NCBI GenBank assembly: GCA_036802945.1
Contig: DAIRVG010000001.1
Span: 97,166-161,165 of the forward strand
Source of the DNA: Vicinamibacterales bacterium
GTDB lineage: Bacteria > Acidobacteriota > Vicinamibacteria > Vicinamibacterales > UBA2999
Length of the DNA: 64,000 nt
Direction of reading: 5' to 3'
Notes under the pieces: generated by a model
What the model was told of the DNA's origin: nothing
The model's database searches: none
Seen by the model: the letters and a program-made list of their open reading frames with translations, nothing else
In this document: one piece after another, positions 4,861-39,542 of the stretch
Position numbering within the stretch: the first letter of the stretch is position 1
Layout: every line of letters begins with the position of its first letter
Program-made: the position numbers and the translations under genes

Positions 4861-4930
4861 CGCTGCGACTGTACCGCGCCTGTCTCCCAGCACCGCGCTC
4901 GACGCAAGGCGCTGCGCGCCATTGGCACCC

Positions 4931-7825: not shown

Positions 7826-9549
7826 AGGTCCTCTTCTCGGGTCTGCACTTCGCGTACTTCAGGAACTTCGAATCCGCGATACGCGAGCTGGCTGCGCGCG
7901 GGCACTCGGTACATCTCTCAGCCGATGAGGTCGAGGCCCCGATAAACATGGGCGGCCAGCATCTGGTGGAGTGCCTGGCGGCGCAATGTCCCACGATCTC
8001 ATGGGACCTGGCGCCTTCGCTGGAGCAGGAAACCTGGTTCGATGCAGCCCGGCGTCTGCGGCTTGGCCTGGACTACGTGCGGGTGCTCGAGCCGGCGTAT
8101 GCATCGGCCTCGAAGCTTCGCATGCGCGCGCGCGCGCGCGCGCCGCGTGTCGTCCGATGGGCGGCCGCCGCGCCTGTTATCGGACGTCCGCTGGCGCGTG
8201 CCGGGCTCACAGGCGCCGAACGCGCGCTGCCGGCCAGCGAGGCGCTGAAGGACTACCTGCGGCGTCACGATCCGGACGTCGTCGTGCTCGTCTCGCTGAC
8301 CTATTCACGATCACAGCAGTTCGACCTCCTGAAGGCCGCGCGGGGCCTCGGGATCCCAGTGGCCGCGGCGATCATGAGCTGGGACCATCTGTCCAGCAAG
8401 GCGCTGCTCCACGTGGCTCCGGACATGATCATTGTCTGGAACGACCTGCAGCGTCAGGAAGCGGTGGAGATGCACGGCCTTCCCTCCGACCGCATCGTGG
8501 TCACCGGCGCCCAGTGTTACGACCAGTGGTTCAGCCGCACGCCCGAGCGAAGCCGGGAGGAGTTCTGTCGCGCGATGGGGTTGCGCGAGGATCGTCCATT
8601 CGTCCTGTGGGTGCACTCGGCCATGAGTCCAGTGCCCGACCCGCCTGAGCCCGTGCTCGTCACGCAGTGGCTCGACGCCCTCCGATCGAGTCACGATGCG
8701 CGGTTGCGCGATCTGGGTGTGCTGGTGCGGCCCCATCCCGAGCGATTGAAGGAATGGGCGGGCGTGGATCTGGGGCGTTTCGACAATGTCGTGTTCCGTG
8801 GCGGCAACCCGATCGACGCGCGCTCCAAGGAGGACTACTTCGACGCCCTGTACTACAGCAGGGCGGTGATCGGCCTCGTCACGAGCGCGTTTCTCGAGGC
8901 CGCGGTGGTCGGACGCCCGGTGTTCACGTTCACGCTGCCGGAATATCGCGTCCACCAGGAGGAGATGCTCCACTTCCGCTATCTCACGAGCGTGGCGGGC
9001 GGGCTGCTTTCGACGGCGCCCGACATTCCCACACACCTGGCGCAACTCGCCGATGCGATCGCCGAGCCCGAGGGGCGCGACCAGCGCAACCGGCGTTTTC
9101 TGACGGCGTTCGTTCGGCCCGCGGGACTCGACGTCCCGGCGACGCCCGCATTCGTCGACGCGATCGAGCGGTTGCACCGCGACGGGACGCGCGGCGATCC
9201 AGGTCTTCGTGGTGACTCCTGGATCACGCCCCTCGTGGTCGCCGCCGCGGGGGCGGCGCGGACCGGCGTCGGACGATGGCTGATGCTCGACGTCCGTGGC
9301 GACGAGACCGACGACCATCGCGATCGGAAGCAACGCATCATCAGCGCGCGGGCCGCCGCGAAAGCCACCCGGCAGCACGCAAAAGCGCGGCGGCGCGCCC
9401 GGCGGGCGCGTCGTGATGCCATCCTGCGGGGCGGCAAGGAAGTGAAAAGCGCGCTTCTTCTCATCCGCTATCACGCCGCCGTGGCCGTCCATCGAGCGCT
9501 CGCGCTCACCGGTTTCGATCGGAATCATCCGGGAGCCGGCAAGGAATGA
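7822..9549 (+). CDS. Family A uncharacterised GT-B-like protein, paralog 1 of 3
   Basis: MKVLFSGLHFAYFRNFESAIRELAARGH, MSWDHLSSKALL, VLVRPHPERLKEW and VTSAFLEAAVVGRPV. ATG 7822 overlaps the upstream TGA. Basic C-terminal tail. Confidence 0.75.
   Translation: MKVLFSGLHFAYFRNFESAIRELAARGHSVHLSADEVEAPINMGGQHLVECLAAQCPTISWDLAPSLEQETWFDAARRLRLGLDYVRVLEPAYASASKLRMRARARAPRVVRWAAAAPVIGRPLARAGLTGAERALPASEALKDYLRRHDPDVVVLVSLTYSRSQQFDLLKAARGLGIPVAAAIMSWDHLSSKALLHVAPDMIIVWNDLQRQEAVEMHGLPSDRIVVTGAQCYDQWFSRTPERSREEFCRAMGLREDRPFVLWVHSAMSPVPDPPEPVLVTQWLDALRSSHDARLRDLGVLVRPHPERLKEWAGVDLGRFDNVVFRGGNPIDARSKEDYFDALYYSRAVIGLVTSAFLEAAVVGRPVFTFTLPEYRVHQEEMLHFRYLTSVAGGLLSTAPDIPTHLAQLADAIAEPEGRDQRNRRFLTAFVRPAGLDVPATPAFVDAIERLHRDGTRGDPGLRGDSWITPLVVAAAGAARTGVGRWLMLDVRGDETDDHRDRKQRIISARAAAKATRQHAKARRRARRARRDAILRGGKEVKSALLLIRYHAAVAVHRALALTGFDRNHPGAGKE
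8124..8143. repeat. (GC)10 dinucleotide tract inside family A paralog 1
   Basis: A perfectly alternating G/C run of 20 nt that encodes RARARA. Confidence 0.9.
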
Positions 9550-11678: not shown

Positions 11679-13282
11679 AGATTCTCTTCGTCGCGCGCCA
11701 CTTCACGTACTTCCGAAACTTCGATTCGGTCTTGCGGCTGCTTGCGTCCCACGGGCACGCGATTCACCTCGCGGTTGAGCGGGACGAGACGCAAGGGCTC
11801 GGCGGCGTGGCCCTCGTGGAGCGCCTGGCGGCGGACTATCCATCCATCACTTTCGGCGAGGCGCCGGGTCGAGAACCCGACGAATGGGCCCGGTTGTCGG
11901 CCAAGATCCGCCTGGCGTTCGACTACGTCAGATATCTCGATCCGCAATATGACGGTACGCCGCGGCTTCGTTCGCGCTCCGCGGAGCGCGCACCGGAGTT
12001 TGCGATCCGTTTTGGCCAGACCTCCCTGGCACGGCGCCGGCTGGCGCGCGCGGCGCTGCGACGGGTGCTGCGCGCGGCCGACGGGTCCCTGCCCCCGAGC
12101 AAACAGATCGAGGCGTTTCTGCGCGAGCAGCGTCCGGACGTGATGCTCATCACGCCGCTCATTGGCGTCGTCGGATCGCCGCAGCCCGACTACGTGCGCG
12201 CAGCCCGTGCCCTGGGGATCCCGACCGCGCTTGCCGTCTGGAGCTGGGATCATCTGTCGAGCAAGGCGCTCATCCGGGATCTGCCCGATCGCGTCTTCGT
12301 CTGGAACGAGGTCCAGCGATCGGAGGCGAAGCGGTTTCACGGCGTCCCGCGCGATCGCGTCGTCGTCACGGGCGCGCAGTGCTTCGATCACTGGTTCGAC
12401 CGCAAGGTGTCCCGCAGCCGCATCGAGTTCTGCGCTGACATGGGGTTGCCCGCCGATCGTCCACTGATCATGTACGTAGGGTCGGCGCTGTTTCGCGGCA
12501 GCCCCCCTGAAGTCGACTTCGTCATGGAATGGATCGCGCGCCTCCGCGCTAGCGCCGATCCCGCGCTCCGGAACGCGGCCATCCTGATTCGGCCGCATCC
12601 ACAGCGGATGGATGAATGGCGGAACGTGGACGTCGCGACGTTAGCGGACGTCGCCCTAAGAAGCGCGAACCCGGTGACCGAGGAGGCGCGCGCGGATTAT
12701 TTCGACGCGCTGTTTTTCAGCAGAGCCGTTGTCGGCCTCAATACGAGCGCATTCCTGGAAGCGGGCATCGTGGGCCGTCCGGTATTGGCGATTCTGCCGA
12801 CCGAGTACCACGACAATCAGGAGGGCACGCTGCACTTCCGCTACCTGACCGATGTCTCGGGCGGGCTCGTGCGCGTCAGCCGCTCGCTCGATGAGAACGA
12901 GGCGCAGCTGCGTCCCGTCCTCGCCGCCCCCGATGACGCCGCTGCGGTGCGCCGGTTCGTCGAGACTTTCCTGCGCCCGTACGGTCTCGACGTCCCTGCA
13001 ACGCCGAGATTTGCCGCCGCCGTCGAGGCGTTGCGGGATGTGCGGGTCCGACGCGGCAGTCGAATGCCGTCGCCGCTTGGGCGCGCCGCGCTCAACACGA
13101 TGGTGGCAATTGGCCAGTCTTCGCAGCATCGTGCGTGGATGTTCGACCAGGAAGAGCGCAACTACGAGGAGTGGCGCCGCCGGAAAGGCGAAATCCGCTC
13201 AAAGAACAGACGTGCGGGCCTCACCCCGGAACAGCAAGCCGAGGCCGAGCGAGAAATGCGCGCACATCGGGCGAACCCGTGA
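11675..13282 (+). CDS. Family A uncharacterised GT-B-like protein, paralog 2 of 3
   Basis: VKILFVARHFTYFRNFDSVLRLLASHGH, WSWDHLSSKALI, ILIRPHPQRMDEW and NTSAFLEAGIVGRPV. GTG 11675 overlaps the upstream TGA. Confidence 0.75.
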   Translation: MKILFVARHFTYFRNFDSVLRLLASHGHAIHLAVERDETQGLGGVALVERLAADYPSITFGEAPGREPDEWARLSAKIRLAFDYVRYLDPQYDGTPRLRSRSAERAPEFAIRFGQTSLARRRLARAALRRVLRAADGSLPPSKQIEAFLREQRPDVMLITPLIGVVGSPQPDYVRAARALGIPTALAVWSWDHLSSKALIRDLPDRVFVWNEVQRSEAKRFHGVPRDRVVVTGAQCFDHWFDRKVSRSRIEFCADMGLPADRPLIMYVGSALFRGSPPEVDFVMEWIARLRASADPALRNAAILIRPHPQRMDEWRNVDVATLADVALRSANPVTEEARADYFDALFFSRAVVGLNTSAFLEAGIVGRPVLAILPTEYHDNQEGTLHFRYLTDVSGGLVRVSRSLDENEAQLRPVLAAPDDAAAVRRFVETFLRPYGLDVPATPRFAAAVEALRDVRVRRGSRMPSPLGRAALNTMVAIGQSSQHRAWMFDQEERNYEEWRRRKGEIRSKNRRAGLTPEQQAEAEREMRAHRANP

Positions 13283-13287
13283 CACAG

Positions 13288-15963
13288 ATGAAGATTCTGT
13301 TCTTCGCGAGGCACTACTCGTATTTGCGGCTGTTCGAGTCGGCCATCCTGGAGCTCGCCCAGCGTGGCCACCACATTCACCTTGCCGCGGACCGCGAGGA
13401 AGCCATGGGCGGCCGCCGACTGGCGGAGCGGCTCGCCGAGAAGTACCCGAACGTGACGCTTGGCACGACGCCAGGGCGGGCGCCCGGCGCCTGGGCCGAG
13501 TTTGCGCGTCGTCTCCGCATGGGGATCGACTACCTGCGGTATCTCGATCCGCGGTACGAGGACACACCGCACCTGAAGGCGCGCGCGCGCGAACGCGCTC
13601 CCCGCAGCATCGTGACCCTCGCGGAACGTCTCCGCCCCGGCGGCGGCCGCCGCGCGCTCGCGAGTCTGCTGCGCACACTCGAGCGTGGCATTCCGACCAC
13701 GCGATCTCTCGAGAACTACATCCGCCAGCAGCATCCGGACGTCGTGCTGATCACGCCGCTGGTGGAGCTGGGCTCGCCTCAGATGGATCATCTGGCTGCC
13801 GCGAAAGCCCTCGGGATCCGCACTGCGTTGCCTGTCGCGAGCTGGGATCACCTTTCGAGCAAGGCGCTGGTGCGCAATTATCCAGACCTGCTGCTCGTCT
13901 GGAACGAGATTCAGAAGCGGGAAGCGGTCGAGATGCACGGCGTTGCGCCCGATCGGGTCGTTGTCACCGGCGCGCATTGCTACGATCAGTGGTTCGACCG
14001 CTCGCCGTCGAGGAGCCGCGAGAGCTTCTGCGCTCGCGTCGGGCTCCGGTCGGACAGGCCGCTGGTGCTCTATCTCTGTTCGTCGCTGTTCCGCGGGACC
14101 GCCAGCGAGGCGGCTGTCGTCGAACGCTGGGTCGAAGCAATCCGAACCAGCGACGATCCCCGCTTGAAAGACATCGGCATCCTGATCCGCCCGCATCCGG
14201 CCCGACTCGACGAATGGAAGCACGTCGATCTCTCCGGATACCGAAACATCGTGTTCTGGGGCGCGCATCCGGTCGATGCCGAGGCCAAGGACGACTATTT
14301 CGATTCGCTGTATTACAGCGCTGCGGTCGTCGGCCTGAATACGAGCGCCTTTCTCGAAGCAGCCGTGGTCGGCAAGCCGGTGCACACCGTGCTCGTCGAC
14401 GAGATCTCTCGGGTCAACCAGGAAGGGACAATTCATTTCCACTACCTGATGGAAGTGAACGGCGGGTTGCTGCGCGTCGCGCGGACGTTCGACGAGCATC
14501 TTCTGCTGCTGGCCGACTCGCTCGCGCCCGAAGGCGGCGGCGACACCAAAGCGCAACGCTTCGTCGAAGGATTCATCCGGCCGCTCGGCGCATCGGTTCC
14601 TGCGACGCCTCGCTTCGCGGACGCAATCGAGAGGCTTGCAGCGTCGCCTGCGCCGCATGCGCAGGGTGACGGGATCGTGGAGCGCGCCATCCGACTGGCG
14701 CTCTATCCCGCGGTCGGCGTTCTGCATGCGCTGCTCGCGACGCAGCCGCAACGGAAGCGGGTGCGACTGAAGTTCAGCAAGTGGCACCAGGACGGACGCC
14801 GCCGCGTCTTCGTGAAGCTGAAGCAGTTTGCGCAGAGCCAGCTTGGCGAGAAGGAGTTGACGGCCGCTCCCCTCGGTCCGCCGTCGGCGCTCACTCCAAA
14901 GCCGGGCCGTCAGCGGGATCCCGCGAAGAAGCTGGCCGGCTGGAATCTGCCCGAAGCAGAAGAAACGCGCGCGCTGATCAACTCGCTTGGTCGGGGTGGA
15001 CGACCGATCCTGATCGGACCATGGTTGTCGGAGGCCGGGTTCGAGCTGCTCTATTGGATTCCGTTCCTCGCGTGGGCGAAGGCATACGGCAACCTCGATC
15101 CGTCGCAGCTCGTGGTCATCTCTCGCGGGGGTGCGTTCTCCTGGTATCGCGACATCACGACCCAGTACGAGGATGTGTTGTCCTTCTTCACGCCAGACGA
15201 ATTCCGCGCTCGCAACGACGGGCGCATCATCGAGCAGCGCGGACGGATGAAGCACGTCGAAATCTCCAGCTTCGATCGGGAGATCATTGCGAAGGTGAGC
15301 GAGAAGCGCGGCTTGAGCGGCGTTCGCCTGCTGCATCCGTCGACGATGTACCGCCTGTTCGATCATTTCTGGTTCCAGCGCGTGCCGGTCACACTCATCG
15401 AAGCGTTCACGTCGTTCGGGCCGCTGCCGCCCGTTGAGATCGGCGACCTGCGAAGCCGGTTGCCGGAGCGCTACGCCGCCGCGAAGTTCTACGGCAACAC
15501 CGCGTTGCCGGACACCCCGGAGAATCAGGCGTTCGTGGCGTCGTATCTCGAGGAGTTGACGCGCCACATCGACGTCGTGCTCCTCAACACCGGACAACGG
15601 TTCGACGATCACGAGGACATGGCGCGGCTCAATCGCAGCCGCATTCATACCGTCGATCACCTGATGACGCCCGAGACCAATCTCGACGTCCAGACGCGGA
15701 TTATCGCGGGCGCCGAGGCGTACGTCGGCACCTATGGAGGGTTTTCGTACCTGGCTCCCTTTGTCGGCACGCACGCGCTGACGTTCTACTCGCACATCAC
15801 CGGCTTCCGGTTCGATCACCTCGAGGTGGCCAAGCGCGTCTTCTCCGGACTGCGGGAGGGAAGCTTCGTCGAGATCGATCTTCGCTCGATGGATCTGATG
15901 CGCCTCGGTCTTGGTGGCGCGTCACATACGACAGACGCGCTCGCGGGGGCGAGGCGAGGTTGA
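13288..15963 (+). CDS. Fusion protein: family A domain (about aa 1-450), basic linker, family B domain (about aa 560-891)
   Basis: N-terminal MKILFFARHYSYLRLFESAILELAQRGH, ASWDHLSSKALV and ILIRPHPARLDEW. C-terminal ILIGPWLSEAGFELLYWIPFLAW, LHPSTMYRLF and VGTYGGFSYLAPFVG. Confidence 0.8.
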   Translation: MKILFFARHYSYLRLFESAILELAQRGHHIHLAADREEAMGGRRLAERLAEKYPNVTLGTTPGRAPGAWAEFARRLRMGIDYLRYLDPRYEDTPHLKARARERAPRSIVTLAERLRPGGGRRALASLLRTLERGIPTTRSLENYIRQQHPDVVLITPLVELGSPQMDHLAAAKALGIRTALPVASWDHLSSKALVRNYPDLLLVWNEIQKREAVEMHGVAPDRVVVTGAHCYDQWFDRSPSRSRESFCARVGLRSDRPLVLYLCSSLFRGTASEAAVVERWVEAIRTSDDPRLKDIGILIRPHPARLDEWKHVDLSGYRNIVFWGAHPVDAEAKDDYFDSLYYSAAVVGLNTSAFLEAAVVGKPVHTVLVDEISRVNQEGTIHFHYLMEVNGGLLRVARTFDEHLLLLADSLAPEGGGDTKAQRFVEGFIRPLGASVPATPRFADAIERLAASPAPHAQGDGIVERAIRLALYPAVGVLHALLATQPQRKRVRLKFSKWHQDGRRRVFVKLKQFAQSQLGEKELTAAPLGPPSALTPKPGRQRDPAKKLAGWNLPEAEETRALINSLGRGGRPILIGPWLSEAGFELLYWIPFLAWAKAYGNLDPSQLVVISRGGAFSWYRDITTQYEDVLSFFTPDEFRARNDGRIIEQRGRMKHVEISSFDREIIAKVSEKRGLSGVRLLHPSTMYRLFDHFWFQRVPVTLIEAFTSFGPLPPVEIGDLRSRLPERYAAAKFYGNTALPDTPENQAFVASYLEELTRHIDVVLLNTGQRFDDHEDMARLNRSRIHTVDHLMTPETNLDVQTRIIAGAEAYVGTYGGFSYLAPFVGTHALTFYSHITGFRFDHLEVAKRVFSGLREGSFVEIDLRSMDLMRLGLGGASHTTDALAGARRG

Positions 15964-15982
15964 CGCGTCGCCCGCACCGGAC

Positions 15983-17014
15983 ATGCTGCGCGCGCTGAGA
16001 CGGCCTGTCCGCGAGATGCTGCGGCATCGAGCGGAGCTGCGCGAACAGCTGGACTGGTCGCGTACGGCGTGGCAGGTCGAGCGCGAAATCGACGACATCG
16101 CCGCCGGCAGCCGCACGCTCGTCGTCGGCCCGTGGCTCTCCGAGGTAGGGTACGAGGCCCTCTATTGGATCCCTTTTCTTCGCTGGGTGAAGGCCGCGTT
16201 TCGCATCGATGCGTCACGGGTTGTGGCGGTGTCACGCGGCGGGGTGGGCTCGTGGTACGAAGGAATCGCCGGCCGGTACGTCGAAATCTGGGATGAGTGC
16301 GACCCGGCGGAATTTGCCGTTCGCGCCGCGGAACGGGGCGCCACGAAGCAGCACGAGGTCTCGGCGTTCGATCGCGAGGTCATCGCGGCGGTCGAACGCC
16401 GGCTGGGCGAACGCGTGGATGTCCTCCATCCGTCGCTGATGTACCGGCTTTTCTCTCTGTTCTGGTCCGGTCAGAAGCCGCTGGGCTTTCTCGACGCGCA
16501 TACCCGCTTCGAGCCGGTGGCGCCCCCGCGGATCGTCGATGCCAGCCGTCTCCCGCGCGAATACGTCGCGGTGAAGTTCTATGCGGCGCGCTCGCTGCCG
16601 GATACGCCGGAAATCCGCCGCACGCTCGCGTGGTTTGTCGACAGCCTGGCCGAGCGCACCAACGTCGTGCTGCTCGAGACCGGACTCGTACTCGACGAAC
16701 ACACCGACTACACCTTCGGGTCCTCGGGGCGTGTCATCAGCGCGAAGCCGTGGATGACGCCGGCCAACAATCTGGGGGTGCAGACGCAGGTCATTGCCGG
16801 AGCGCAGGCGTTCCTCGGCACCTGCGGCAGCGTGGCGTGGCTTGCCCCGATGCTCGGTGTGAACACGTCGGCGGTGTACGTCGATCCCAAGTGGCTGCAC
16901 GCGCACCTCGGGGTCGCGCTGCGCGCCTGTCATCGCGCGGGCGCCGGCCGGTTTGCGGCGATGGACCTCCGGGCGCTCGATCCCCTCGGCATCCCGGTGC
17001 ACGTCCGTTCATGA
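15983..17014 (+). CDS. Family B uncharacterised protein (GPWLSEVGYE family), stand-alone copy 1
   Basis: VVGPWLSEVGYEALYWIPFLRW, VSRGGVGSWY, LHPSLMYRLF, YVAVKFY and LGTCGSVAWLAPMLG. The start is chosen as the first ATG after the upstream stop. Confidence 0.7.
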   Translation: MLRALRRPVREMLRHRAELREQLDWSRTAWQVEREIDDIAAGSRTLVVGPWLSEVGYEALYWIPFLRWVKAAFRIDASRVVAVSRGGVGSWYEGIAGRYVEIWDECDPAEFAVRAAERGATKQHEVSAFDREVIAAVERRLGERVDVLHPSLMYRLFSLFWSGQKPLGFLDAHTRFEPVAPPRIVDASRLPREYVAVKFYAARSLPDTPEIRRTLAWFVDSLAERTNVVLLETGLVLDEHTDYTFGSSGRVISAKPWMTPANNLGVQTQVIAGAQAFLGTCGSVAWLAPMLGVNTSAVYVDPKWLHAHLGVALRACHRAGAGRFAAMDLRALDPLGIPVHVRS

Positions 17015-18078
17015 CAGGCATGTCATTCAACTCGCATCCCGCGCTCGCCGGTCTCGGCTCCGGCCGGTGTCTCGTCATCGGCGAGGTCGCGCTCACCCAC
17101 GACGGCAGCCTCGGCCTGGCGCATGCGTTCGTCGATGCGATCGCGGACGCCGGCGCGGACGCGGTGAAATTCCAGACACACATCGCAGCCGGCGAGAGCA
17201 CGCCCTCGGAGCCCTTCCGCGTGAAGTTCAGCCGCCAGGACGAGACCCGCTACGACTACTGGAAGCGGATGGAGTTCTCCGAGGACCAGTGGCGCGGACT
17301 CGCGGATCACGCGCGCCACCGCGGCATGCTGTTTCTCTCGTCGCCCTTTTCGGTGCAGGCGATCGAGCTGCTCGATCGTATTGGCATGCCGCTGTGGAAG
17401 ATCGCATCGGGTGAAACCTCGAATATGATGCTGCTCGATCGCGTTCTCGACACACGCAAGCCCGTGCTGCTCTCGACCGGCATGAGCCCGATCGCGGAGA
17501 TCGATTCGGCGGTCGCCCGCGTGCGCGCGCGCGACGTCGACGTCGGGGTGTTCCAGTGCACGACCGCCTATCCATGCCCGGCGGAAAAGATCGGCCTCAA
17601 TCTCATCCCGTTTTACAGGGAGCGATATGGGTGCTGGGTGGGGCTGTCGGATCATTCGGCGACGATCTATCCGGGCCTCGCCGGGGCGGCGCTCGGCATG
17701 GACATGCTCGAAGTACACGTGGCGCTTTCGCGAGAGATGTTCGGACCGGACGTGATCGCGTCGGTCACCACCTCTGAATTGCGCCAACTGGTCGACGGTG
17801 TGCGCTTCATCGAGCGCATGCGCGCCAACCCGATCGACAAGAACGCGTCGGCGCAGGAAACCGCGCCACTGCGCAAGCTGTTCACCCGGAGCCTCGTGGC
17901 AAGCAGGGATCTGCCCGCGGGCACCGTCATCACGCGCGAACATCTGGCGGTCAAGAAACCGGGTACCGGTCTCTCGCCGGATCGCCTCGAGGAGCTCATT
18001 GGCCGGCGCCTTGCGCGCCCCGTTATTGCAGATCAACTCCTTGCGGTGGAGGATATCGAAGGACCCGCCCGCTCTTGA
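17011..18078 (+). CDS. neuB: N-acylneuraminate/nonulosonate synthase (bacterial NeuB/LegI type)
   Basis: VIGEVALTHDGSLGLAHAFVDAIADAGADAVKFQTH, KIASGE, GLSDHS and a C-terminal SAF-like LVASRDLPAGTVITREHLAVKKPG. The ATG overlaps the upstream TGA. Confidence 0.85.
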   Translation: MTGMSFNSHPALAGLGSGRCLVIGEVALTHDGSLGLAHAFVDAIADAGADAVKFQTHIAAGESTPSEPFRVKFSRQDETRYDYWKRMEFSEDQWRGLADHARHRGMLFLSSPFSVQAIELLDRIGMPLWKIASGETSNMMLLDRVLDTRKPVLLSTGMSPIAEIDSAVARVRARDVDVGVFQCTTAYPCPAEKIGLNLIPFYRERYGCWVGLSDHSATIYPGLAGAALGMDMLEVHVALSREMFGPDVIASVTTSELRQLVDGVRFIERMRANPIDKNASAQETAPLRKLFTRSLVASRDLPAGTVITREHLAVKKPGTGLSPDRLEELIGRRLARPVIADQLLAVEDIEGPARS

Positions 18079-19232
18079 CCAAACGAAAAATCTGCGTCGT
18101 CGTCACCGCCCGCCCCAGCTACTCCCGTATCCGCAGCGCCCTCAAAGCCGTCAACGAGCATCCCGATCTCCAGCTCCAGCTCGTCGTAGCCGCGTCCGCG
18201 CTGCTCGACCGTTACGGCAATGCGATCCAGGCGATCGAACGCGACGGGTTCGCGATCGAGCAGCGCGTCTACATGGTGCTCGAGGGCGAGAACCTCGTGA
18301 CCTCCGCAAAGTCCACAGGTATCGGGCTCTCGGAGCTCGCGACGGTGTTCGACAACCTCAAGCCGGACGCGGTCGTCACGGTCGCGGATCGCTACGAGAC
18401 GCTCGCGACCGCCGTCGCCGCGTCGTACATGAACATTCCCGTCGTGCACGTGCAGGGCGGGGAGGTGACCGGGTCGATCGATGAGAAGGTGCGCCACGCC
18501 GTCACGAAGCTCGCGAACCTGCACCTAGTGTCCACTCAGCTCGCCGCGGAGCGTGTCCGCCGACTCGGTGAGGAGCCCGACAGCATCTTCGTCACCGGAT
18601 GTCCGTCGATTGACATTGCTGCCGAAGTCGCGGCGCGGCCCGCAATGGATTTCGATCCGTTCGTGAAGTACGGGGGCGTCGGGCCGACCACCGACCTGTC
18701 CAGGGGTTACGTGGTGGTGATGCAGCACCCCGTGACGACTGAGTACGAAGAGGCGCGGCAGCAGGTCGACGAGACGCTGTATGCGGTGAAAAACTTCGGC
18801 GTGCCGGTGCTCTGGTTCTGGCCGAATGTCGACGCCGGATCGGACGGGACATCGAAAGGCATCCGCGTGTTCCGCGAGAAGGAAGATCCACCAAATTTCC
18901 ACCTGTTCCGCAACATGTCCCCGGAAGATTTCCTTCGCCTCCTTTGCGGCGCGACGGCGATTGTCGGCAACTCGAGCGTCGCAATCAGGGAATGCTCGTA
19001 CCTCGGCGTGCCGGCGGTGAACATCGGTAGTCGACAGCTTGGACGCGAACGCGGGCAGAACGTGATCGACGTTGACCACGATCGCAAGGAGATCTCCGAC
19101 GCAGTCCAGACCCACATCAGGCGCGGCAAGCCGACGCGCGATCTCCTGTACGGCGACGGCAAGGCGGGAGGCCGCATCGCCGATTGCCTCTCGAAAGTCG
19201 AGCTGAAGATCGAGAAGAGGTTGACGTATTGA
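18075..19232 (+). CDS. neuC: UDP-sugar 2-epimerase, hydrolysing (NeuC/LegG type), copy 2
   Basis: KICVVVTARPSYSR, ADRYETLA and HVQGGEVTGSIDEKVRHAVTKLANLHL. The TTG start overlaps the neuB stop. Confidence 0.85.
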   Translation: MTKRKICVVVTARPSYSRIRSALKAVNEHPDLQLQLVVAASALLDRYGNAIQAIERDGFAIEQRVYMVLEGENLVTSAKSTGIGLSELATVFDNLKPDAVVTVADRYETLATAVAASYMNIPVVHVQGGEVTGSIDEKVRHAVTKLANLHLVSTQLAAERVRRLGEEPDSIFVTGCPSIDIAAEVAARPAMDFDPFVKYGGVGPTTDLSRGYVVVMQHPVTTEYEEARQQVDETLYAVKNFGVPVLWFWPNVDAGSDGTSKGIRVFREKEDPPNFHLFRNMSPEDFLRLLCGATAIVGNSSVAIRECSYLGVPAVNIGSRQLGRERGQNVIDVDHDRKEISDAVQTHIRRGKPTRDLLYGDGKAGGRIADCLSKVELKIEKRLTY

Positions 19233-19240
19233 CCGTCACC

Positions 19241-20176
19241 ATGTCGTCGGATCGTCGGGCGCGGATCACTGCGCTCGACTACAACTACGCGTCACAGCCG
19301 AAGCTGGCGGTGACGTCCTGCAATTTGTGCGGGGCATCGGAGTTCGTCGTCCTGGCGCATCGCGATCGCTACGGCTATCCAGCCCAGGCGCACGCGTGCC
19401 GCCGCTGCGGCCTCGTCTTTCTCAATCCCCGGATGACGGCGGAGTCGTACGGCCGCTTCTACAACGGCATCTATCGTCCGCTCGTGAGCGCCTTCCACGG
19501 ACGCCTGATTGACGCCCAGACCATACAGGACGAGCAGCGCGAGTACGCCGCCGAGCGTGCCGAATTCATCCGCTCGTTCATGGCGAAGCCAGGCGGCAGG
19601 ACGATGCTCGACATCGGGGGGTCGACCGGTGTGGTCGCCCATCACTTCGCGCGTGAATTCGGCCTCAACAGCACGCTCATCGACCCCGCTCCGCTCGAGG
19701 TTGAACAAGCGGGGCGCCTTGGCCTCGAGACGATCACAGGGCTCGTCGAAGAACATGACTTCGGCAGCCGCCGCTTCGACGTTGTCATCATCTGCCAGAC
19801 GGTCGATCACCTCCTCGACGTCGCCGGCACGCTCGGGCGCGTGCGCCAGTTGTTGTCGGACAACGGTCTTTTCTTCATCGACATTGTGGACTTCCGCGCC
19901 GCGTACCTGCGCAACTGGTCGGTCGAGGACGCAGTGAAGATCGACCATCCGTACTACCTGACCGAGTCGACGATGGTGGCGTATTTGAGGAGCTCGGGGT
20001 TCGAGGTCCTCCGCAGCGACTACGCGGCCGATCATCTGCATGTGAGCTACGTCTGTCGATCCGGCACTGCGGACGCGGACGTCATGCCCGCGGCTGCTTC
20101 GGTCGACGAGTTGTTGCGCGAGGTTCGGTTTGTGCAGAACACTCGCGGACCTGAAAGGTCCGCGCCGCGTCCGTAG
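19241..20176 (+). CDS. Class I SAM-dependent methyltransferase with N-terminal Cys4 zinc ribbon (paralog-like to 6791-7825)
   Basis: CNLCGAS...CRRCGLVFLNP, LDIGGSTGVVA and VVIICQTVDHLLD. Confidence 0.75.
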   Translation: MSSDRRARITALDYNYASQPKLAVTSCNLCGASEFVVLAHRDRYGYPAQAHACRRCGLVFLNPRMTAESYGRFYNGIYRPLVSAFHGRLIDAQTIQDEQREYAAERAEFIRSFMAKPGGRTMLDIGGSTGVVAHHFAREFGLNSTLIDPAPLEVEQAGRLGLETITGLVEEHDFGSRRFDVVIICQTVDHLLDVAGTLGRVRQLLSDNGLFFIDIVDFRAAYLRNWSVEDAVKIDHPYYLTESTMVAYLRSSGFEVLRSDYAADHLHVSYVCRSGTADADVMPAAASVDELLREVRFVQNTRGPERSAPRP

Positions 20177-20193
20177 GTTCGCGCCGCATCTGA

Positions 20194-20886
20194 ATGTCTC
20201 TCGTCCTTGGAATCGTTCCGGCGCGTGGCGGATCGAAGGGTGTGCCGGGCAAGAACGTGCGGCCGCTCGCCGGGCTGACGCTCCTTGAGTACACCGCGCG
20301 CGCCGCGCGTGAGTCTGGCGTTCTCGATCGCGTGATCCTCAGTACAGATTCGGCGGAGATCGCCGACACGGGACGACGGGCGGGACTCGACGTCCCGTTC
20401 ATGCGGCCCGTGATGCTCGCCAGCGACGACACGCCGATGCTGCCGGTGATCCAGCATGCACTCGAGTCGCTTGCGCGCGACGGCTGGTCGGCAGACATGA
20501 TCGTCCTCCTCCAGCCGACGTCTCCGCTGCGGCGGCCGGATCACATCCGGGCCGCCGTCACGACGCTGCGCGACACCAAGGCGGATTCAGTCGTGACGGT
20601 TGTCGAGATTCCTCGACACCTGTCGCCGGACTACGTGATGCGCATCGACGGAGGGCGTCTCCAGCCGTTTCTGCCGGAAGGCGCGCGCGTGACGCGCCGC
20701 CAGGACGCACGTCCTGCGTACTGTCGCGATGGCACCGTCTACGCGTTCTGGCGCGCGACGATCGAGCGGTTCGGTGGTATTTACGGCGAGGATTGTCGCC
20801 CGCTGTTGATCGACGCGCGCGAATCGCTGAGCATCGACTCACCGGCGGACTGGGACGCGGCCGAACGGCTCCTCGCAGGTCGCTAG
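20194..20886 (+). CDS. neuA: Acylneuraminate/nonulosonate cytidylyltransferase, copy 2
   Basis: IVPARGGSKGVPGKN and LLQPTSPLRR. Confidence 0.85.
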   Translation: MSLVLGIVPARGGSKGVPGKNVRPLAGLTLLEYTARAARESGVLDRVILSTDSAEIADTGRRAGLDVPFMRPVMLASDDTPMLPVIQHALESLARDGWSADMIVLLQPTSPLRRPDHIRAAVTTLRDTKADSVVTVVEIPRHLSPDYVMRIDGGRLQPFLPEGARVTRRQDARPAYCRDGTVYAFWRATIERFGGIYGEDCRPLLIDARESLSIDSPADWDAAERLLAGR

Positions 20887-20903
20887 CGATGTCCATCGAG
20901 ACA

Positions 20904-20973
20904 GGCCACGGAGGCACGCAGGCACGGAGGACAATTGTGATTCCTAGCTCCGTGTCTCCGTGTCTCCGTGGCC
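20904..20973. repeat. Intergenic palindrome built from 3+3 tandem 8-mers
   Basis: Left arm GGCCACGGAGGCACGCAGGCACGGAGG, a 17-nt loop, right arm CTCCGTGTCTCCGTGTCTCCGTGGCC. About 23 of 26 positions are complementary. Confidence 0.8.
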
Positions 20974-20980
20974 CGTCGCA

Positions 20981-22021
20981 GTGACATCGTTTCGACATCT
21001 GATTCCGCGGCCGCTGCGCCTCGCCGCAAGCGCATATCTCGCGCGGCGCCACAGCGCGCAACTCCAGCGCGATCTCGCGGCGATCGCCGCTCGGCGGACG
21101 GTCATTGTCGCGGGACCATGGCTCGGCGAGGTGGGGTTCGAGCTGCTCTACTGGGTCCCGTTTCTCCGCTGGTTTGCCGAGCGCTTCAACGTGTCCCCGG
21201 AGCGCCTTATCGTCGTGTCCCGCGGAGGGACGTCGTCCTGGTATCGACCGTTTGCTGCGCAGTATTTCGACGCGTTCGACCAGGTAACCCCGGACACCTT
21301 CCGTGGCCAGCATGATGCACGCGTACGCGATCTCGGCGAGCAGAAGCAGACGCGCCTCACTGAATTCGATCGCGAGCTGATCGACGGCGCTACGCGGAGG
21401 GCGAATGTCTCCGACTGGTCACTGCTGCACCCCTCGCGCATGTACGACGTGCTCAACCCGTACTGGTGGGGCCACCTGTCGAGCGGCTGGGTGCATCAAC
21501 ACACGCGCTATGCGCGGCTGTCTGAGCCTGATCGCATGGCTGACGTCGACTTTCCGGAGCGGTATGTGGCGGTGAAGTTCTACTTCAACGATTGCTTCCC
21601 GGCCAACGCCCAGAATCGTGCGTTCGTGCGCGATGCCCTTCGGACGCTTGCGGGCCGTGGACCGGTCGTCGCGCTTTCGACCGGGTTGAACATAGACGAC
21701 CACGGCGGCATGCGCCTCGATGAGTACGGCGTGCGGCATCTTCCCGAAGGGATTGATCCGGCGCGCAACCTGCACGTACAGAGCACGCTGGTCTCACGCG
21801 CGCTGGCGTTTGTCGGTACTTACGGCGGGTTTTCCTACATGGCACCGTTCTACGGCGTCAGATCCCTGGCGTTCTACAGCGACCCGTCAGGCTTTTCGCA
21901 GAAGCATCTTCACATGGCGCGATCCGCGTTCGACGCGATCGGAACGACCGGCCTGCTGGACGTCCGCGATGCCGCGGCGGGTGCCGAAGCCGTGGATCAC
22001 GCGTGGGCGGCCGGCGCGTGA
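20981..22021 (+). CDS. Family B uncharacterised protein, stand-alone copy 2
   Basis: VAGPWLGEVGFELLYWVPFLRW, VSRGGTSSWY, LHPSRMYDVL, YVAVKFY and VGTYGGFSYMAPFYG. The GTG at 20981 is preferred because the 20960 start lies inside the repeat hairpin. Confidence 0.7.
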   Translation: MTSFRHLIPRPLRLAASAYLARRHSAQLQRDLAAIAARRTVIVAGPWLGEVGFELLYWVPFLRWFAERFNVSPERLIVVSRGGTSSWYRPFAAQYFDAFDQVTPDTFRGQHDARVRDLGEQKQTRLTEFDRELIDGATRRANVSDWSLLHPSRMYDVLNPYWWGHLSSGWVHQHTRYARLSEPDRMADVDFPERYVAVKFYFNDCFPANAQNRAFVRDALRTLAGRGPVVALSTGLNIDDHGGMRLDEYGVRHLPEGIDPARNLHVQSTLVSRALAFVGTYGGFSYMAPFYGVRSLAFYSDPSGFSQKHLHMARSAFDAIGTTGLLDVRDAAAGAEAVDHAWAAGA

Positions 22022-23271
22022 CTGAACGCGGCTGGGCGGCGGTCGACGCACGCGCCCGGACGGCGAAGCGCGCGGCATTCGCGGAGACCAAGCGCGGATT
22101 CAAGCTGGTACGGGAGCGTCTTCGCAACGCGATGATCGCCGCTGTCAACCTTTCGGCGAAGCAGCTGCGGCGCGCATCGTGGTTCGGCGCGCGTGTGCAG
22201 AAGCAGGTGCTCGAGCTCGGTGAAACGAAGAAACGCGTCGATACGTACCGCGCCGAGTGGGCGATCGAGCGCGACATCGCGCGTGTCGTTTCTGGTTCTG
22301 ATCCGATCATCGTCGGGCCGTGGCTCTCGGAAGTCGGGTACGAGGTTCTGTATTGGGTGCCGTTCGTGCGGTGGGTTCAGGCGGAGTTCCGGATTCCCGC
22401 CTCGCGCCTGGTCGTGGTGACGCGAGGAGGGGCCGCATCCTGGTATTCGGACATCACGACGAAGACCGTGGAGCTGTTCGATCTGATGACACCGGACGAC
22501 TACGCTTCGCGCAACGCGCAGCGCAGCGCCGAGGATCGCGGCACGCTCAAGCAGTTCGGCGTCTCGCCGATGGATCGCGAGATCGTCGCGGAGGTCGAGC
22601 GGCGGATTGGCGCAAGCCGGACGCGCCTCCTCCATCCGTCTCTGATGTACCAGCTGTTTCACCAGTTCTGGCTGGGACACCGGTCGCCGTCATTCCTCGA
22701 GAGGCGAACCAGATACCGGCTCATCTCGCCGCCCGATGTCGCGCTTCCGCCGCTTCCCGCGCAGTTCGTTGCGGTGAAGTTTTATACGGCTGCCTCGCTG
22801 CCGCCAACCGATCCGGTGCGCCGCGCGCTGAGATCGATTGTCCTTGGCCTGGCCGAGCAGATGCCTGTCGTGATGCTCGACACCGGGCTGGCGCTGGACG
22901 ACCACGAGGACTATTCGTTTGCGACCGCGTCGCGTATTCACAGCGTTCGCGAGTCGTTCCACCCGCGCGACAATCTCGCGGTGCAGACGGCGATCATCGC
23001 TCGCGCCTCGTCATTCGTCGGCACCTGCGGCGCGCTCGCATGGCTGGCGCCGATGCTTGGCATCGACACGACCGCCGTGCTCGCCGACGCGCGGTTCCTG
23101 CATGGACACCTGCAGGTCGCCCGCCGGGTCTACCAGGTGATAGAGGGCGGACGATTCTCGCCGCTCGACATTTCCGCGTTCGATCAGCTCGGCATCGAGC
23201 TGTCGCGCGCCAGGGGCTCCATGACCGAAGACCGTAGACCGCAGACCGTAGACGGCGGGAGCCGACCATGA
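22018..23271 (+). CDS. Family B uncharacterised protein, stand-alone copy 3
   Basis: IVGPWLSEVGYEVLYWVPFVRW, VTRGGAASWY, LHPSLMYQLF, FVAVKFY and VGTCGALAWLAPMLG. GTG 22018 overlaps the upstream TGA (alternative ATG at 22003). Confidence 0.7.
   Translation: MTERGWAAVDARARTAKRAAFAETKRGFKLVRERLRNAMIAAVNLSAKQLRRASWFGARVQKQVLELGETKKRVDTYRAEWAIERDIARVVSGSDPIIVGPWLSEVGYEVLYWVPFVRWVQAEFRIPASRLVVVTRGGAASWYSDITTKTVELFDLMTPDDYASRNAQRSAEDRGTLKQFGVSPMDREIVAEVERRIGASRTRLLHPSLMYQLFHQFWLGHRSPSFLERRTRYRLISPPDVALPPLPAQFVAVKFYTAASLPPTDPVRRALRSIVLGLAEQMPVVMLDTGLALDDHEDYSFATASRIHSVRESFHPRDNLAVQTAIIARASSFVGTCGALAWLAPMLGIDTTAVLADARFLHGHLQVARRVYQVIEGGRFSPLDISAFDQLGIELSRARGSMTEDRRPQTVDGGSRP
23229..23256. repeat. Tandem heptamer tract AGACCGY x4 inside the 3' tail of the family B gene
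   Basis: AGACCGT AGACCGC AGACCGT AGACGGC. It encodes the non-conserved tail RRPQTVDG. Confidence 0.8.
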
Positions 23272-24404
23272 GCATTCGTGACGTGCTCGTCACCGGTGGC
23301 GCCGGGTATATCGGCTCACACCTCGTCGACGCCCTCGTCGCGCGCGAGTACCGCGTGACCGTGCTCGACAACCTCGAGCCACAGGTACATCGCTCGGGCA
23401 CCTGGCCGTCCTACGCCAACCCCAAGGTGAAGTACGTGAAGGGCGACGTGCGCGATCGGTCGGTCTTCGAGCCGCTCGTCCTGGCGTCGCAGGCGGTCGT
23501 GCATTTCGGCGCCGCGGTGAGTATCGGCCAGAGCATGTACCAGGTCGATCGCTACGTGGACGTGAACACGCGCGGCACCGCGCTCCTGCTGGACATCCTC
23601 ATCAACACGAAGCACAAGGTGGAGAAGGTGCTCGTCGCGTCCTCGATCGGCGTGTACGGCGAAGGCGCGTACACATGCGCGACGCACGGTGCGGTCGCGC
23701 CGACAATCCGCCCGGAGCAGCAGCTCGCCTCGCGAGACTGGGAGCAGCACTGCCCCCAATGCGGCACACACGTGACATCGATCCCGACGCCGGAAGACAA
23801 GGCGCTCTACCGCGACAACATCTACTCGATGACGAAGTATCACCAGGAAGAAATGGTCCTGCTCATCGGAAAGACCTACGGCATCCCCTCGGTGGCGCCG
23901 CGCTTCTTCAACGTCTACGGCCCTCGCCAGAGCCTGAGCAATCCTTACGCGGGCGTCGCGGCCATCTGGTTGAGCCGGCTGTTGAATGGGAAACAGCCGG
24001 TTGTCTTCGAGGACGGCGGCCAGCTGCGCGACTTCGTGTCGATTCACGACGTGGTCGATTGCCTGATCCTGATGCTCGAGAAGCCCGGCGCCGATTACCT
24101 GCCGGTCAACGTCGGTTCTGGACAGACGGTGACGATCCTGGAGATCGCGAACATTCTCAGACGCCTGCTTGGGTCCTCCATCGAACCGCAGATCACGCAG
24201 AGCGGGCGCAAGTTCGACATCCGCCACAACACAGCCGACATCGCCCGCGCGCGCGAGACGCTCGGCTTCGCGCCCAGGGTCACACTCGATCAGGGCTTCT
24301 CCGAGTTGATCGAGTGGGCCAGGACGACGCCGGACGTGGCCGTCGATTTCTTCGACAAGGCGCTGCAGGAATTGCAGGACAAGGGACTCCTGGTCAAGTC
24401 ATGA
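23268..24404 (+). CDS. NAD-dependent nucleotide-sugar epimerase/dehydratase (extended SDR) with a Cys-containing insert
   Basis: VLVTGGAGYIGSHL and YSMTKYH (YxxxK). The insert reads CATHG...CPQCGTH. Confidence 0.75.
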   Translation: MSIRDVLVTGGAGYIGSHLVDALVAREYRVTVLDNLEPQVHRSGTWPSYANPKVKYVKGDVRDRSVFEPLVLASQAVVHFGAAVSIGQSMYQVDRYVDVNTRGTALLLDILINTKHKVEKVLVASSIGVYGEGAYTCATHGAVAPTIRPEQQLASRDWEQHCPQCGTHVTSIPTPEDKALYRDNIYSMTKYHQEEMVLLIGKTYGIPSVAPRFFNVYGPRQSLSNPYAGVAAIWLSRLLNGKQPVVFEDGGQLRDFVSIHDVVDCLILMLEKPGADYLPVNVGSGQTVTILEIANILRRLLGSSIEPQITQSGRKFDIRHNTADIARARETLGFAPRVTLDQGFSELIEWARTTPDVAVDFFDKALQELQDKGLLVKS

Positions 24405-24411: not shown

Positions 24412-24858
24412 GTGATTCTCGAGTTCGAGCAGCTGAAGAACTACCGCAAGACAGTCGCAATGGTGGACGGCGCGTTCGATCCGCTGCACCGGGGGCACAT
24501 CGAGTATTTTCGCGCCGCTGCCGGGCAACTCGACGTGCCGCTGCTCTGCAACGTCGCCTCCGATCGCTACGTGCGGACCAAGCATCCACCGCTGCTTCCC
24601 GAGGACCATCGAGCGGCGGTGGTCGACGCCATCCGGTTCATCAGCTACACGCACATCAACCAGTTCGACACCGAGACGATCCTGCGCGAGCTGCAGCCGA
24701 AGTACTACGTCAAGGGTCGGGACTGGGAAGGACGCCTTCCACCCGACCAGCAGCGCATCTGCGCCGAGCACGGCATCCAGGTCGTCTACCTCGATACCGT
24801 CATCGATTCCTCGAGTCGAATTCTCAAGAACTACACGGAGCAGCAGATCCAGCGATGA
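24412..24858 (+). CDS. Small HxGH cytidylyl/adenylyltransferase-like nucleotidyltransferase (TagD / RfaE-domain-II type)
   Basis: VAMVDGAFDPLHRGHIEYF. 148 aa. GTG start. Confidence 0.7.
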   Translation: MILEFEQLKNYRKTVAMVDGAFDPLHRGHIEYFRAAAGQLDVPLLCNVASDRYVRTKHPPLLPEDHRAAVVDAIRFISYTHINQFDTETILRELQPKYYVKGRDWEGRLPPDQQRICAEHGIQVVYLDTVIDSSSRILKNYTEQQIQR

Positions 24859-25520
24859 ACATCACCGAGTTCGAACAGCGCGTCATCGATCAGAGACCGG
24901 TCGCATCTGGCCACTATGATTCCGAGTACTTCACCGGCGACTGGCGCGCCGAGGGGAACAATTACAACCTCGAAACACGCCGGCAAATTGAGGCGAGAAA
25001 CCCATTCCTGATCAGGGACGTCTTCCAGCCGAAAAAAGCGCTGGACCTCGGATGCGGTCCCGGCGCGTTGATGCACCTCCTATGGGAGCTCGGCGTCGAC
25101 GTCGAAGGGATCGACTTCGCCGAGAGCAGCAGGCAGCTTGCGACGCCGGAGGTCCGCGATCGCATCACCGTCGGCTACGTTGGAGACCCGACGGTGAAGC
25201 CCGCCAACAGCTACGACCTGGTCATCTGCCGCGAGGTGCTCGAGCACCTCACTGTGCTGCAGGTGAAGCAGACCGTCGCCAACATGGCGCGGATGACATC
25301 GAAGTTCATCTACGTGACGACGCGCTTTCATCCGAGCCCGGATGGCCTCCTCGACTTCACCACGCAGTTCGACGTCGATCCATCGCACATCACACTGCTG
25401 AACAAGGACATGCTCCGCCTGATGTTCGTGCTCGAGGGCTGCCGCTCGCGCCCGGACCTCGAGGGACGGATGGACTGGGGAAACAAGGGGCGCGTGCTCG
25501 TGCTCGAGAAGCTGTCGTAG
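24855..25520 (+). CDS. Class I SAM-dependent methyltransferase
   Basis: ALDLGCGPGALMHLL and DLVICREVLEHL. The ATG overlaps the upstream TGA. Confidence 0.8.
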   Translation: MNITEFEQRVIDQRPVASGHYDSEYFTGDWRAEGNNYNLETRRQIEARNPFLIRDVFQPKKALDLGCGPGALMHLLWELGVDVEGIDFAESSRQLATPEVRDRITVGYVGDPTVKPANSYDLVICREVLEHLTVLQVKQTVANMARMTSKFIYVTTRFHPSPDGLLDFTTQFDVDPSHITLLNKDMLRLMFVLEGCRSRPDLEGRMDWGNKGRVLVLEKLS

Positions 25521-25522
25521 AC

Positions 25523-28788: not shown

Positions 28789-28795
28789 GGACCGC

Positions 28796-39471: not shown

Positions 39472-39526
39472 GCGGGGCGCAAAGCCCCCGCCCTACATGT
39501 GTAGGGCGCCCCTTTACGGGGGCGCC
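39471..39526 (+). terminator. Three consecutive GC-rich stem-loops (terminator/processing-site candidate, no U-tract)
   Basis: GGCGGGG-cgcaaagc-CCCCGCC, CCTACA-tg-TGTAGG and GGCGCCCC-tttacg-GGGGCGCC. Confidence 0.4.
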
Positions 39527-39542
39527 GTGGGGAGACACGCCA

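Follow-up and report, generated by a model that had tools for sequence, protein, structure and literature searches.

A five-copy protein family with a predicted GT-B fold, repeated around nonulosonate genes in a Vicinamibacterales bacterium, is a candidate new glycosyltransferase family

Introduction

Which enzymes join the sugars of a glycan whose locus carries several nonulosonate pathways? Transferases for the bacterial nonulosonic acids, i.e. pseudaminic (Pse), legionaminic (Leg) and neuraminic (Neu) acid and their derivatives, are few and poorly defined (PMC5420450). We address the question in a stretch of 64,000 nucleotides from a Vicinamibacterales bacterium (contig DAIRVG010000001.1, positions 97,166 to 161,165), which in its whole length is called the window below. 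Here a protein domain that we call Family B is present five times, partly among genes for nonulosonates activated by cytidine monophosphate (CMP). An earlier examination of the letters only, the sequence-only reading, had described the five copies as a novel family resembling glycosyltransferase (GT) family 9. It had suggested that they are the missing nonulosonate transferases or, as a fallback, another repeated step of glycan assembly. The analysis below favours the fallback.

Results and discussion

Five specialised copies

The window has 65% G+C, and its genes from about 400 to 59,000 lie nearly all on the forward strand. Family B consists of five paralogous domains of about 320 residues each, all on that strand:

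14899 to 15963, forward strand: copy A, the C-terminal domain of a fusion of two GT-B domains in open reading frame (ORF) 13288-15963; hidden Markov model (HMM) match of 427 bits at 14899-15942.
15983 to 17014, forward strand: copy B, stand-alone, with an alternative TTG start at 15911; the copy modelled with AlphaFold2 (AF2).
20960 to 22021, forward strand: copy C, the most divergent of the five, which keeps all 18 family-invariant residues.
22003 to 23271, forward strand: copy D, starting at GTG 22003 or ATG 22135, with a basic (Arg/Lys-rich), helical N-terminal extension.
33890 to 35152, forward strand: copy E, starting at GTG 33890 or ATG 33920, with a long Arg/Lys-rich N-terminal extension.

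Pairwise identity between the copies is 35-48% (BLASTP E 1e-58 to 1e-111), and 54 columns of their alignment are invariant. An HMM built from 104 members of the family finds exactly five matches (405-427 bits) in the six-frame translation of the window, and the motif GPWL[SG]E[VA]G[YF]E also occurs exactly five times. The paralogy is directly observed and far above chance, and the five domains are those of the sequence-only reading, at essentially the same coordinates. The strict set of conserved blocks that it had listed is present in full, with small corrections: copy C has FP where the block reads LP..Y and G for the last D of (D/E)(D/E)H.D, and the block FD.E(I/V) also tolerates L.

Across the 104 diverse sequences, which include all five window copies, 18 residues are invariant. 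In the numbering of copy B they are G49, P50, E54, G56, E58, W62, R85, G86, Y92, K122, P191, Y200, D238, H240, N263, Q267, G282 and H308.

No transmembrane or hydrophobic segment is found in any of the five copies, so Family B is not membrane-embedded, and a membrane-embedded enzyme was rejected as a candidate.

Paralogues A, B, C and D have one-to-one orthologues, in the same order, across Vicinamibacterales (60-90% identity, with large score margins). Since each paralogue keeps its own orthologue in the same order, the duplications are old and the copies specialised. A recent tandem amplification was rejected on this ground.

No curated model covers Family B

Taken singly, the five copies have no significant match in Pfam-A or NCBIfam, and profiles of 5 and of 104 sequences find nothing significant among all PDB sequences. 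Every name given to members of Family B clusters in NCBI, JGI and ENA is "hypothetical protein". Family B is a genuine family that lacks any curated model, as had been proposed from the letters, and it is a candidate new GT family.

When 1.84 billion representative proteins are searched with a profile, Family B gives 1,676 clusters at 50% identity, 875 of them at E <= 1e-30. Further, a genome scan confirmed 345 Family B stretches, and 78 loci were kept. These come nearly all from metagenome-assembled genomes of Vicinamibacterales / Acidobacteriota subgroup 6. The scan patterns are biased to close relatives of the window copies, so the real taxonomic range is maybe wider. None of 72,556 plasmids was matched by copy B in a tblastn search, and nothing relevant was found in the literature on Vicinamibacter or Acidobacteria together with nonulosonic acid, or on GT9 together with nonulosonic acid.

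A predicted GT-B fold, nearest to GT9

The AF2 model of copy B, based on the 104-sequence alignment, has GT-B topology, with a predicted local distance difference test score (pLDDT) of 95.5 and a predicted template modelling score (pTM) of 0.92. In the model a long N-terminal helix (residues 2-41) precedes two Rossmann-like alpha/beta halves (43-185 and 190-335). The invariant residues are found for the most part in loops that follow beta-strands, or close to where helices start; this placement fits a functional active site between the domains, as is usual for Rossmann-type folds.

In a Foldseek search of the PDB the nearest structures are GT9 enzymes (3tov, WaaC, WaaF, TibC) and UDP-GlcNAc (uridine diphosphate N-acetylglucosamine) 2-epimerases, with E from 8e-6 to 1e-4. 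The matches at E <= 1e-3 number 59, and each of the 50 best, those listed, is a GT-B protein; a polysialyltransferase structure, 5wcn, comes only in 34th place.

Profile comparisons point weakly in the same direction. With an alignment of four E. coli sequences (WaaC, WaaF, WaaQ, WaaU) hhalign gives a probability of 43% (E 2.4e-4), in the donor-binding C-terminal half only, where AFVGTYGGfSYLAP..GVP of Family B is placed on V.VDTGL.HLAAAL..P of GT9. Among 12 single E. coli GT-B proteins only those of GT9 score (WaaC 9.4%, WaaQ 4.4%, WaaF 2.0%), and NeuS, KpsS, KpsC, NeuE, NeuC, WaaG, WaaB and WaaA all stay at or below 0.7%. In particular, no similarity is detectable to the E. coli K1 proteins NeuS (0.2%), KpsS (0.4%), KpsC (0.4%), NeuE (0.1%) and NeuC (0.1%). 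The only recurrent sub-threshold Pfam match that is not a coiled coil is Glyco_transf_9, seen in 5 of the 104 members with a best E of 0.03.

The resemblance to GT9 (PF01075; WaaC, WaaF, WaaQ, TibC/BAHT) includes the two-Rossmann GT-B fold, with the best structural neighbours, and several local features. In the C-terminal donor half a strand is followed by Lys (VAVKFY in Family B, ..K.WP in GT9) and an acidic residue follows strand 2 (DDH against HEE). Thereafter NL.VQT..I..A.AFVGTYGG.SYLAP..GVP corresponds to L.....L...A...V.VDTGL.HLAAAL..P. By inspection, the Gly-x-acid loop after beta-1 (G56-x-E58) recalls G12-D13 of WaaC, and E58 and K199 would be the counterparts of WaaC D13 and K192, in a region outside the alignment. 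However, the N-terminal halves cannot be aligned by sequence, Family B has the extra long N-terminal helix, and no ADP-heptose pathway is found in its window.

Taken together, these data support a GT-B fold for Family B with GT9 as the nearest known family and probably a remote relative; the GT9-like fold of the sequence-only reading is supported by AF2 and Foldseek and, weakly, by hhalign and the sub-threshold Pfam matches. By the membership criteria of HMM match and of catalytic and donor residues Family B falls outside GT9.

The Foldseek result also bears on the idea that Family B is not a transferase, but a GT-B-fold epimerase or hydrolase (NeuC/WecB/PseG-like) or an inert scaffold for its partner family, N-dom (see below). 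The UDP-GlcNAc 2-epimerases, NeuC included, are as near as GT9 in that search. However, none of the five copies or the 104 relatives matches the Pfam family of these enzymes (Epimerase_2), and hhalign against E. coli K1 NeuC gives the 0.1% mentioned above. The window already has two bona fide NeuC genes, and five conserved paralogues with alternating multi-domain fusions would be unexpected for an enzyme of a precursor pathway. Further, the 18 invariant residues are mostly polar or Gly/Pro, which speaks against an inert scaffold. We regard such a non-transferase role as extremely unlikely.

A second GT-B family, N-dom

When the proteins of the window are compared all against all, another GT-B family emerges, N-dom, whose three copies are 44-51% identical. 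The sequence-only reading had not connected this second amplified family of the locus with Family B. The copies are:

7816 to 9549, forward strand: N-dom copy 1, stand-alone; NCBIfam BFO_1060 match with E 5.8e-8.
11669 to 13282, forward strand: N-dom copy 2, stand-alone.
13288 to 14958, forward strand: N-dom copy 3, the N-terminal 557 residues of the fusion ORF 13288-15963; HP motif (IRPHP); BFO_1060 match with E 2e-8.

The AF2 model of N-dom (pLDDT 90) has a GT-B fold, and its Foldseek neighbours are 2-epimerases, GT4 enzymes and TagF. In contrast to Family B, which has none, N-dom is the sole source of the NCBIfam hit NF046086 (BFO_1060 family). The matches score 33.7 and 32.2 bits, below the cutoff of 200, and are partial (profile positions 40-179 of 365). 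Judged by these scores, N-dom is related to the BFO_1060 family, yet not a member of it.

The BFO_1060 family includes Tanf_01245 and TFUB4_00887 of Tannerella forsythia, whose deletion strips the terminal Pse/Leg derivative from the O-glycan; its GT-B-type enzymes use CMP-activated ulosonic acids, and HP is described as a motif of the bacterial transferases for nonulosonate and sialyl residues (PMC5420450). A profile of 201 N-dom sequences finds KpsS of E. coli K1 as the best of the 12 GT-B proteins (23.6%, E 8.6e-4). The alignment places ILVRPHP of N-dom on LVIKHHP of KpsS and AVVGLNTSA on AVVTINSTA, i.e. the HP motif and the loop that follows it, and in both proteins the HP motif is in the C-terminal half. 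KpsS, like KpsC a beta-Kdo transferase (Capsule_synth), is of the GT-B type and uses a CMP-activated ulosonic acid as donor. The signals from BFO_1060 and KpsS are weak, yet all point to a CMP-ulosonate transferase, and N-dom is more likely than Family B to be the CMP-nonulosonate transferase. The likeness to these enzymes (HP and NTS in N-dom, HP and NST in KpsS) extends to N-dom only and not to Family B, and even N-dom scores far under the family cutoffs (33 against 200 bits; 23.6% in hhalign).

Family B and N-dom themselves give 1.6% in hhalign, and by this comparison there is no detectable kinship between them beyond the common fold.

Family B and N-dom occur together, and beside nonulosonate genes

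Of the 78 genome loci, 75 have both families together, and 59 have NeuB at a distance of no more than 10 kb. In addition, many relatives of Family B are N-dom-Family B fusions of about 850-920 residues, like ORF 13288-15963. Other fusions are Family B-Family B (P0121, P0154), Family B-N-dom-Family B (P0124) and N-dom-Family B-N-dom (P0146), with lengths of up to 1,429 residues; in P0131 Family B is fused to a sulfotransferase and adjoins an ABC-2 permease. Among the divergent representatives, P0254, P0154 and P0168 stand on short contigs (1-3 kb), and so does P0131 (4.7 kb); they offer little genomic context, and for an independent view of it L081 and L084 alone were informative. The domain architectures are stronger evidence for the coupling than the co-location counts.

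Three loci of differing gene order repeat the pairing. In L081 (70% GC) a Family B-N-dom-Family B protein at 10001-13549 stands beside NeuB, a CMP synthetase, an aldehyde dehydrogenase, a short-chain dehydrogenase/reductase (SDR) and a split transketolase; a small nucleotidyltransferase, methyltransferases, a sulfotransferase, a Capsule_synth protein, a GT4 and Wzy_C are also present. L084 (413-8593) has genes for N-dom-Family B, N-dom, Family B-Family B and Family B, as well as a GT2 and an ABC ATPase. In L083 (54% GC) the end of an N-dom gene is followed by a Family B gene and, directly after it, by a nucleotidyltransferase-methyltransferase fusion (1436-2218), made of homologues of the window genes 24412-24858 and 24855-25520.

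The multi-module layout resembles a modular polymerase. In Neisseria meningitidis W/Y the capsule polymerase SiaD has two domains, a hexosyltransferase and a sialyltransferase. The similarity lies in two different transferase modules per polypeptide within a nonulosonate locus, and the module orders N-B, B-N-B and N-B-N suggest alternating addition of two residue types. In contrast, the sequences are unrelated, both Family B and N-dom are uncurated, and the window has many specialised paralogues instead of one polymerase. GT9 enzymes are not known to occur in tandem fusion with a second GT-B domain.

As had been noted from the letters, Family B is interleaved with neuB, neuC and neuA: NeuB, NeuC, a methyltransferase and a CMP-nonulosonate (CMP-NulO) synthetase lie between copies B and C. 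Its homologues, too, sit in sugar loci, usually beside neuB/neuC/neuA. The window has three ulosonate modules:

17023 to 20886, forward strand: CMP-nonulosonate module 1, between Family B copies B and C (Pfam, NCBIfam).
17023-18078, forward strand: NeuB of module 1.
18075-19232, forward strand: hydrolysing NeuC of module 1; passes the TIGR03568 cutoff.
19184-20176, forward strand: methyltransferase of module 1.
20194-20886, forward strand: CMP-NulO synthetase of module 1.
4652 to 7825, forward strand: CMP-nonulosonate module 2, directly upstream of N-dom copy 1.
4652/4937-6097, forward strand: NeuC of module 2.
5803-6801, forward strand: CMP-NulO synthetase of module 2.
6791-7825, forward strand: methyltransferase of module 2.
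39270 to 46682, forward strand: third ulosonate module; the same gene set stands beside the Family B protein of L081.
39270-40619, forward strand: NeuB2 of the third module.
40616-41425, forward strand: SDR of the third module.
41445-42995, forward strand: aldehyde dehydrogenase of the third module.
43141-43914, forward strand: CMP synthetase of the third module.
44005-45960, forward strand: transketolase of the third module.
45861-46682, forward strand: haloacid dehalogenase (HAD) phosphatase of the third module.

In total NeuB and hydrolysing NeuC are each encoded twice and a CMP-ulosonate synthetase three times (5803-6801, 20194-20886, 43141-43914). The trio of NeuC, synthetase and methyltransferase is present twice, in different orders. 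The set of NeuB, SDR, aldehyde dehydrogenase, CMP-ulosonate synthetase and transketolase recurs in the distant locus L081 (5705-19013), the window copy having the HAD phosphatase in addition. The set points to a route towards an unusual ulosonic acid.

Is Family B itself the nonulosonate transferase?

The proximity to these genes raises the possibility that Family B itself comprises the CMP-nonulosonate (Neu/Leg/Pse-type) transferases, as a new GT9-like GT-B family of the sialyltransferase type, with N-dom transferring, for example, a Kdo-like (3-deoxy-D-manno-octulosonate) residue or a hexose. Family B genes directly flank neuB and neuA, and NeuB is at most 10 kb away in the 59 loci counted above and in L081. 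However, the tightest partner of Family B is N-dom and not neuB. Three CMP-ulosonate synthetases stand beside eight unassigned GT-B domains, and more than one family may use CMP-sugars; N-dom, the better candidate, has three copies, as many as there are synthetases.

The motifs can be read both ways. HPS and (D/E)(D/E)H of Family B are superficially like the HP and D/E-D/E-G motifs of sialyltransferases (PMC5420450). However, the invariant HPS is at residues 149-151, in the N-terminal half (the C-terminal half begins at about 190), whereas HP of N-dom and KpsS is in the C-terminal half. An HP motif in the C-terminal nucleotide-binding domain, a trait of GT38/GT52/GT80 and KpsS/KpsC, is absent from Family B. 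H240 of DDHxD aligns, with low confidence, with the His of the N-dom HP motif and has a roughly equivalent position in the C-terminal domain, with no Pro after it. In Pasteurella PmST1 the order of motifs is DDG and then HP, and that of Family B is the reverse. Profile similarity to NeuS, KpsS and KpsC does not exceed 0.4%, with GT9 at the top. GT-B transferases of the Pse or Leg class do exist, e.g. FlmG (PMC7591256; bioRxiv 10.1101/2022.03.25.485807).

On this evidence it seems rather unlikely that Family B supplies the nonulosonate transferases, and the HP motif, KpsS and BFO_1060 make N-dom the better candidate for what the sequence-only reading had called the missing enzymes. Family B itself is better understood through the fallback of that reading, as some other repeated step in assembling the glycan.

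A proposed role for Family B

Glycosyl transfer by Family B, with a nucleotide-activated donor, is what we infer from its fold, its conserved loop residues and the locus around it; how the two families share the work and which donor Family B uses are likewise inferences. We lean modestly towards a model in which the GT9-like Family B adds an intervening residue in alternation with N-dom as the CMP-nonulosonate transferase. Both would work on the cytoplasmic side, probably at the periphery of the membrane, with Family B as soluble enzymes; the Arg/Lys-rich extensions of copies D and E and the N-terminal helix of the modelled copy would go well with peripheral attachment to the membrane or with contact to a partner. 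The two families would extend a lipid-linked surface glycan stepwise, and this glycan would be rich in nonulosonates, O-methylated and sulfated. N-dom would add the CMP-activated nonulosonate residues and Family B the residue between them, in obligate alternation. Each Family B paralogue presumably has its own acceptor or linkage specificity, and the alternating fusions would mirror the alternating order of residue additions.

Three donors can be considered for Family B: the product of an adjacent nucleotidyltransferase like domain II of RfaE, a UDP- or GDP-sugar made in the locus, or a CMP-nonulosonate. The first of these is suggested by genes directly downstream of copies C and D:

23268-24404, forward strand: SDR epimerase/dehydratase.
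24412-24858, forward strand: small RfaE-domain-II-like nucleotidyltransferase.
24855-25520, forward strand: methyltransferase.

Pfam and NCBIfam match the SDR in two parts, residues 6-135 and about 183-351, and the stretch between them, which contains Cys, has no match. For the nucleotidyltransferase the closest NCBIfam model is the heptose-1-P adenylyltransferase domain II of RfaE (67 bits against a cutoff of 181). Its PDB relatives are split between ECT (ethanolamine-P), HldC and TagD (glycerol-P) and do not decide the donor; heptose-1-P, glycerol-P and ethanolamine-P types are the candidate substrates.

The same gene is the starting point for another alternative, namely that Family B consists of TagF-like phospho-alcohol transferases, or other non-glycosyl transferases, which would move glycerol-P, ethanolamine-P or a similar group from a CDP (cytidine diphosphate) donor made by the adjacent cytidylyl- or adenylyltransferase. 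TagF-type enzymes are GT-B-like, the closest solved relatives of the nucleotidyltransferase include ethanolamine-phosphate and glycerol-3-phosphate cytidylyltransferases, and a homologue of 24412-24858 is beside or near Family B in three gene orders (the window, L083 and L081). However, TagF is absent from the top 50 Foldseek matches of Family B and present in those of N-dom, and NCBIfam places the nucleotidyltransferase nearest to the RfaE adenylyltransferase. Five specialised paralogues and tandem fusions also suit the addition of backbone sugars better than decoration. Such a role is very unlikely, and even jointly with the non-transferase roles discussed above it is quite unlikely.

Several observations weigh against our model of alternating addition by Family B and N-dom. 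The likeness of Family B to GT9 is weak: hhalign reaches 43% at best, and the global TM-scores to the nearest structures are 0.3-0.43 (0.36-0.43 for GT9), values typical for GT-B proteins that differ in domain opening. The UDP-GlcNAc 2-epimerases equal GT9 in Foldseek score. PF01075 is never significant in Family B, and the five window copies have no match to it at E <= 1. D261 of WaaC is not conserved; the aligned position in Family B is the Tyr or Cys of GT(Y/C)G. A heptose pathway (GmhA, heptose kinase) was not found in the window. The link of N-dom to CMP-NulO is weak (33 bits against the BFO_1060 cutoff of 200; 23.6% with KpsS). CMP-sugars could serve both families, given the three CMP-ulosonate synthetases of the window, and the invariant H240 of Family B is, at low confidence, near the topological position of the His in the HP motif of N-dom. 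Finally, the 78 loci are largely syntenic and nearly all from one order, Vicinamibacterales, so they are not phylogenetically independent.

The surrounding locus

The window up to about 59 kb appears to be one very large glycan locus, in which the eight GT-B domains (five of Family B and three of N-dom) are directly seen to lie amid precursor pathways for several unusual sugars. The locus has at least five S-adenosylmethionine-dependent methyltransferases. Its diamino-sugar genes comprise a GFO/IDH/MocA oxidoreductase, three DegT aminotransferases, two hexapeptide acyltransferases and a UDP-sugar dehydrogenase. RmlD-like and GDP-mannose-dehydratase-like genes, five GT2, one GT4 and an initiating phosphoglycosyltransferase of the WecA type are also present. 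At the upstream end there are two sulfation genes:

1020-1598: adenosine phosphosulfate (APS) kinase.
2506-3678: Sulfotransfer_3 protein.

Because the locus has both an APS kinase and a sulfotransferase, its glycan is probably sulfated.

In ORF 9546-11678 one of the methyltransferases, a NanM-like putative sugar O-methyltransferase that passes the TIGR04371 cutoff, is fused to a GT2, and this GT2 shares 50% identity with the free-standing one at 3706-4860. Neither Pfam nor NCBIfam matches two very large membrane proteins of polytopic type (25517-28249, with about 14 hydrophobic segments, and 28622-30508, with about 10), whose coding strand is strongly T-rich; they are candidate transferases of the GT-C type, or else polymerases or ligases, for the locus glycan. 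Three soluble proteins also have no match in Pfam or NCBIfam: 1589-2740 (383 residues), 38548-39471 (307 residues) and 46679-48415 (578 residues). A homologue of 38548-39471 adjoins the nucleotidyltransferase in L081.

The glycan locus seemingly stops before about 59 kb. The genes beyond it are ThiG and a pair like those for ergothioneine synthesis:

60336-61118, reverse strand: ThiG.
61434-62792: DinB_2 and FGE-sulfatase domains (EgtB-like).
62732-63766: Methyltransf_33 (EgtD-like).

Significance

In this locus two GT-B families without curated models are amplified together and fused to each other, around three pathways for CMP-ulosonates. If the donors and acceptors of Family B and N-dom were assigned, CAZy would gain one or two new families, glyco-engineering might gain new enzymes, and a first view would open of how surface glycans are built in these Acidobacteria. 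A bolder proposal, which we offer tentatively and consider on the unlikely side, is that the alternating modules are an unrecognised two-module system, so far mainly of Acidobacteria, that builds a nonulosonate heteropolymer; Family B would then found a CAZy family of its own and would possibly be the first GT9-like user of a CMP-nonulosonate. As a new sequence family inside the known GT-B paradigm, Family B extends known biology and does not overturn it.

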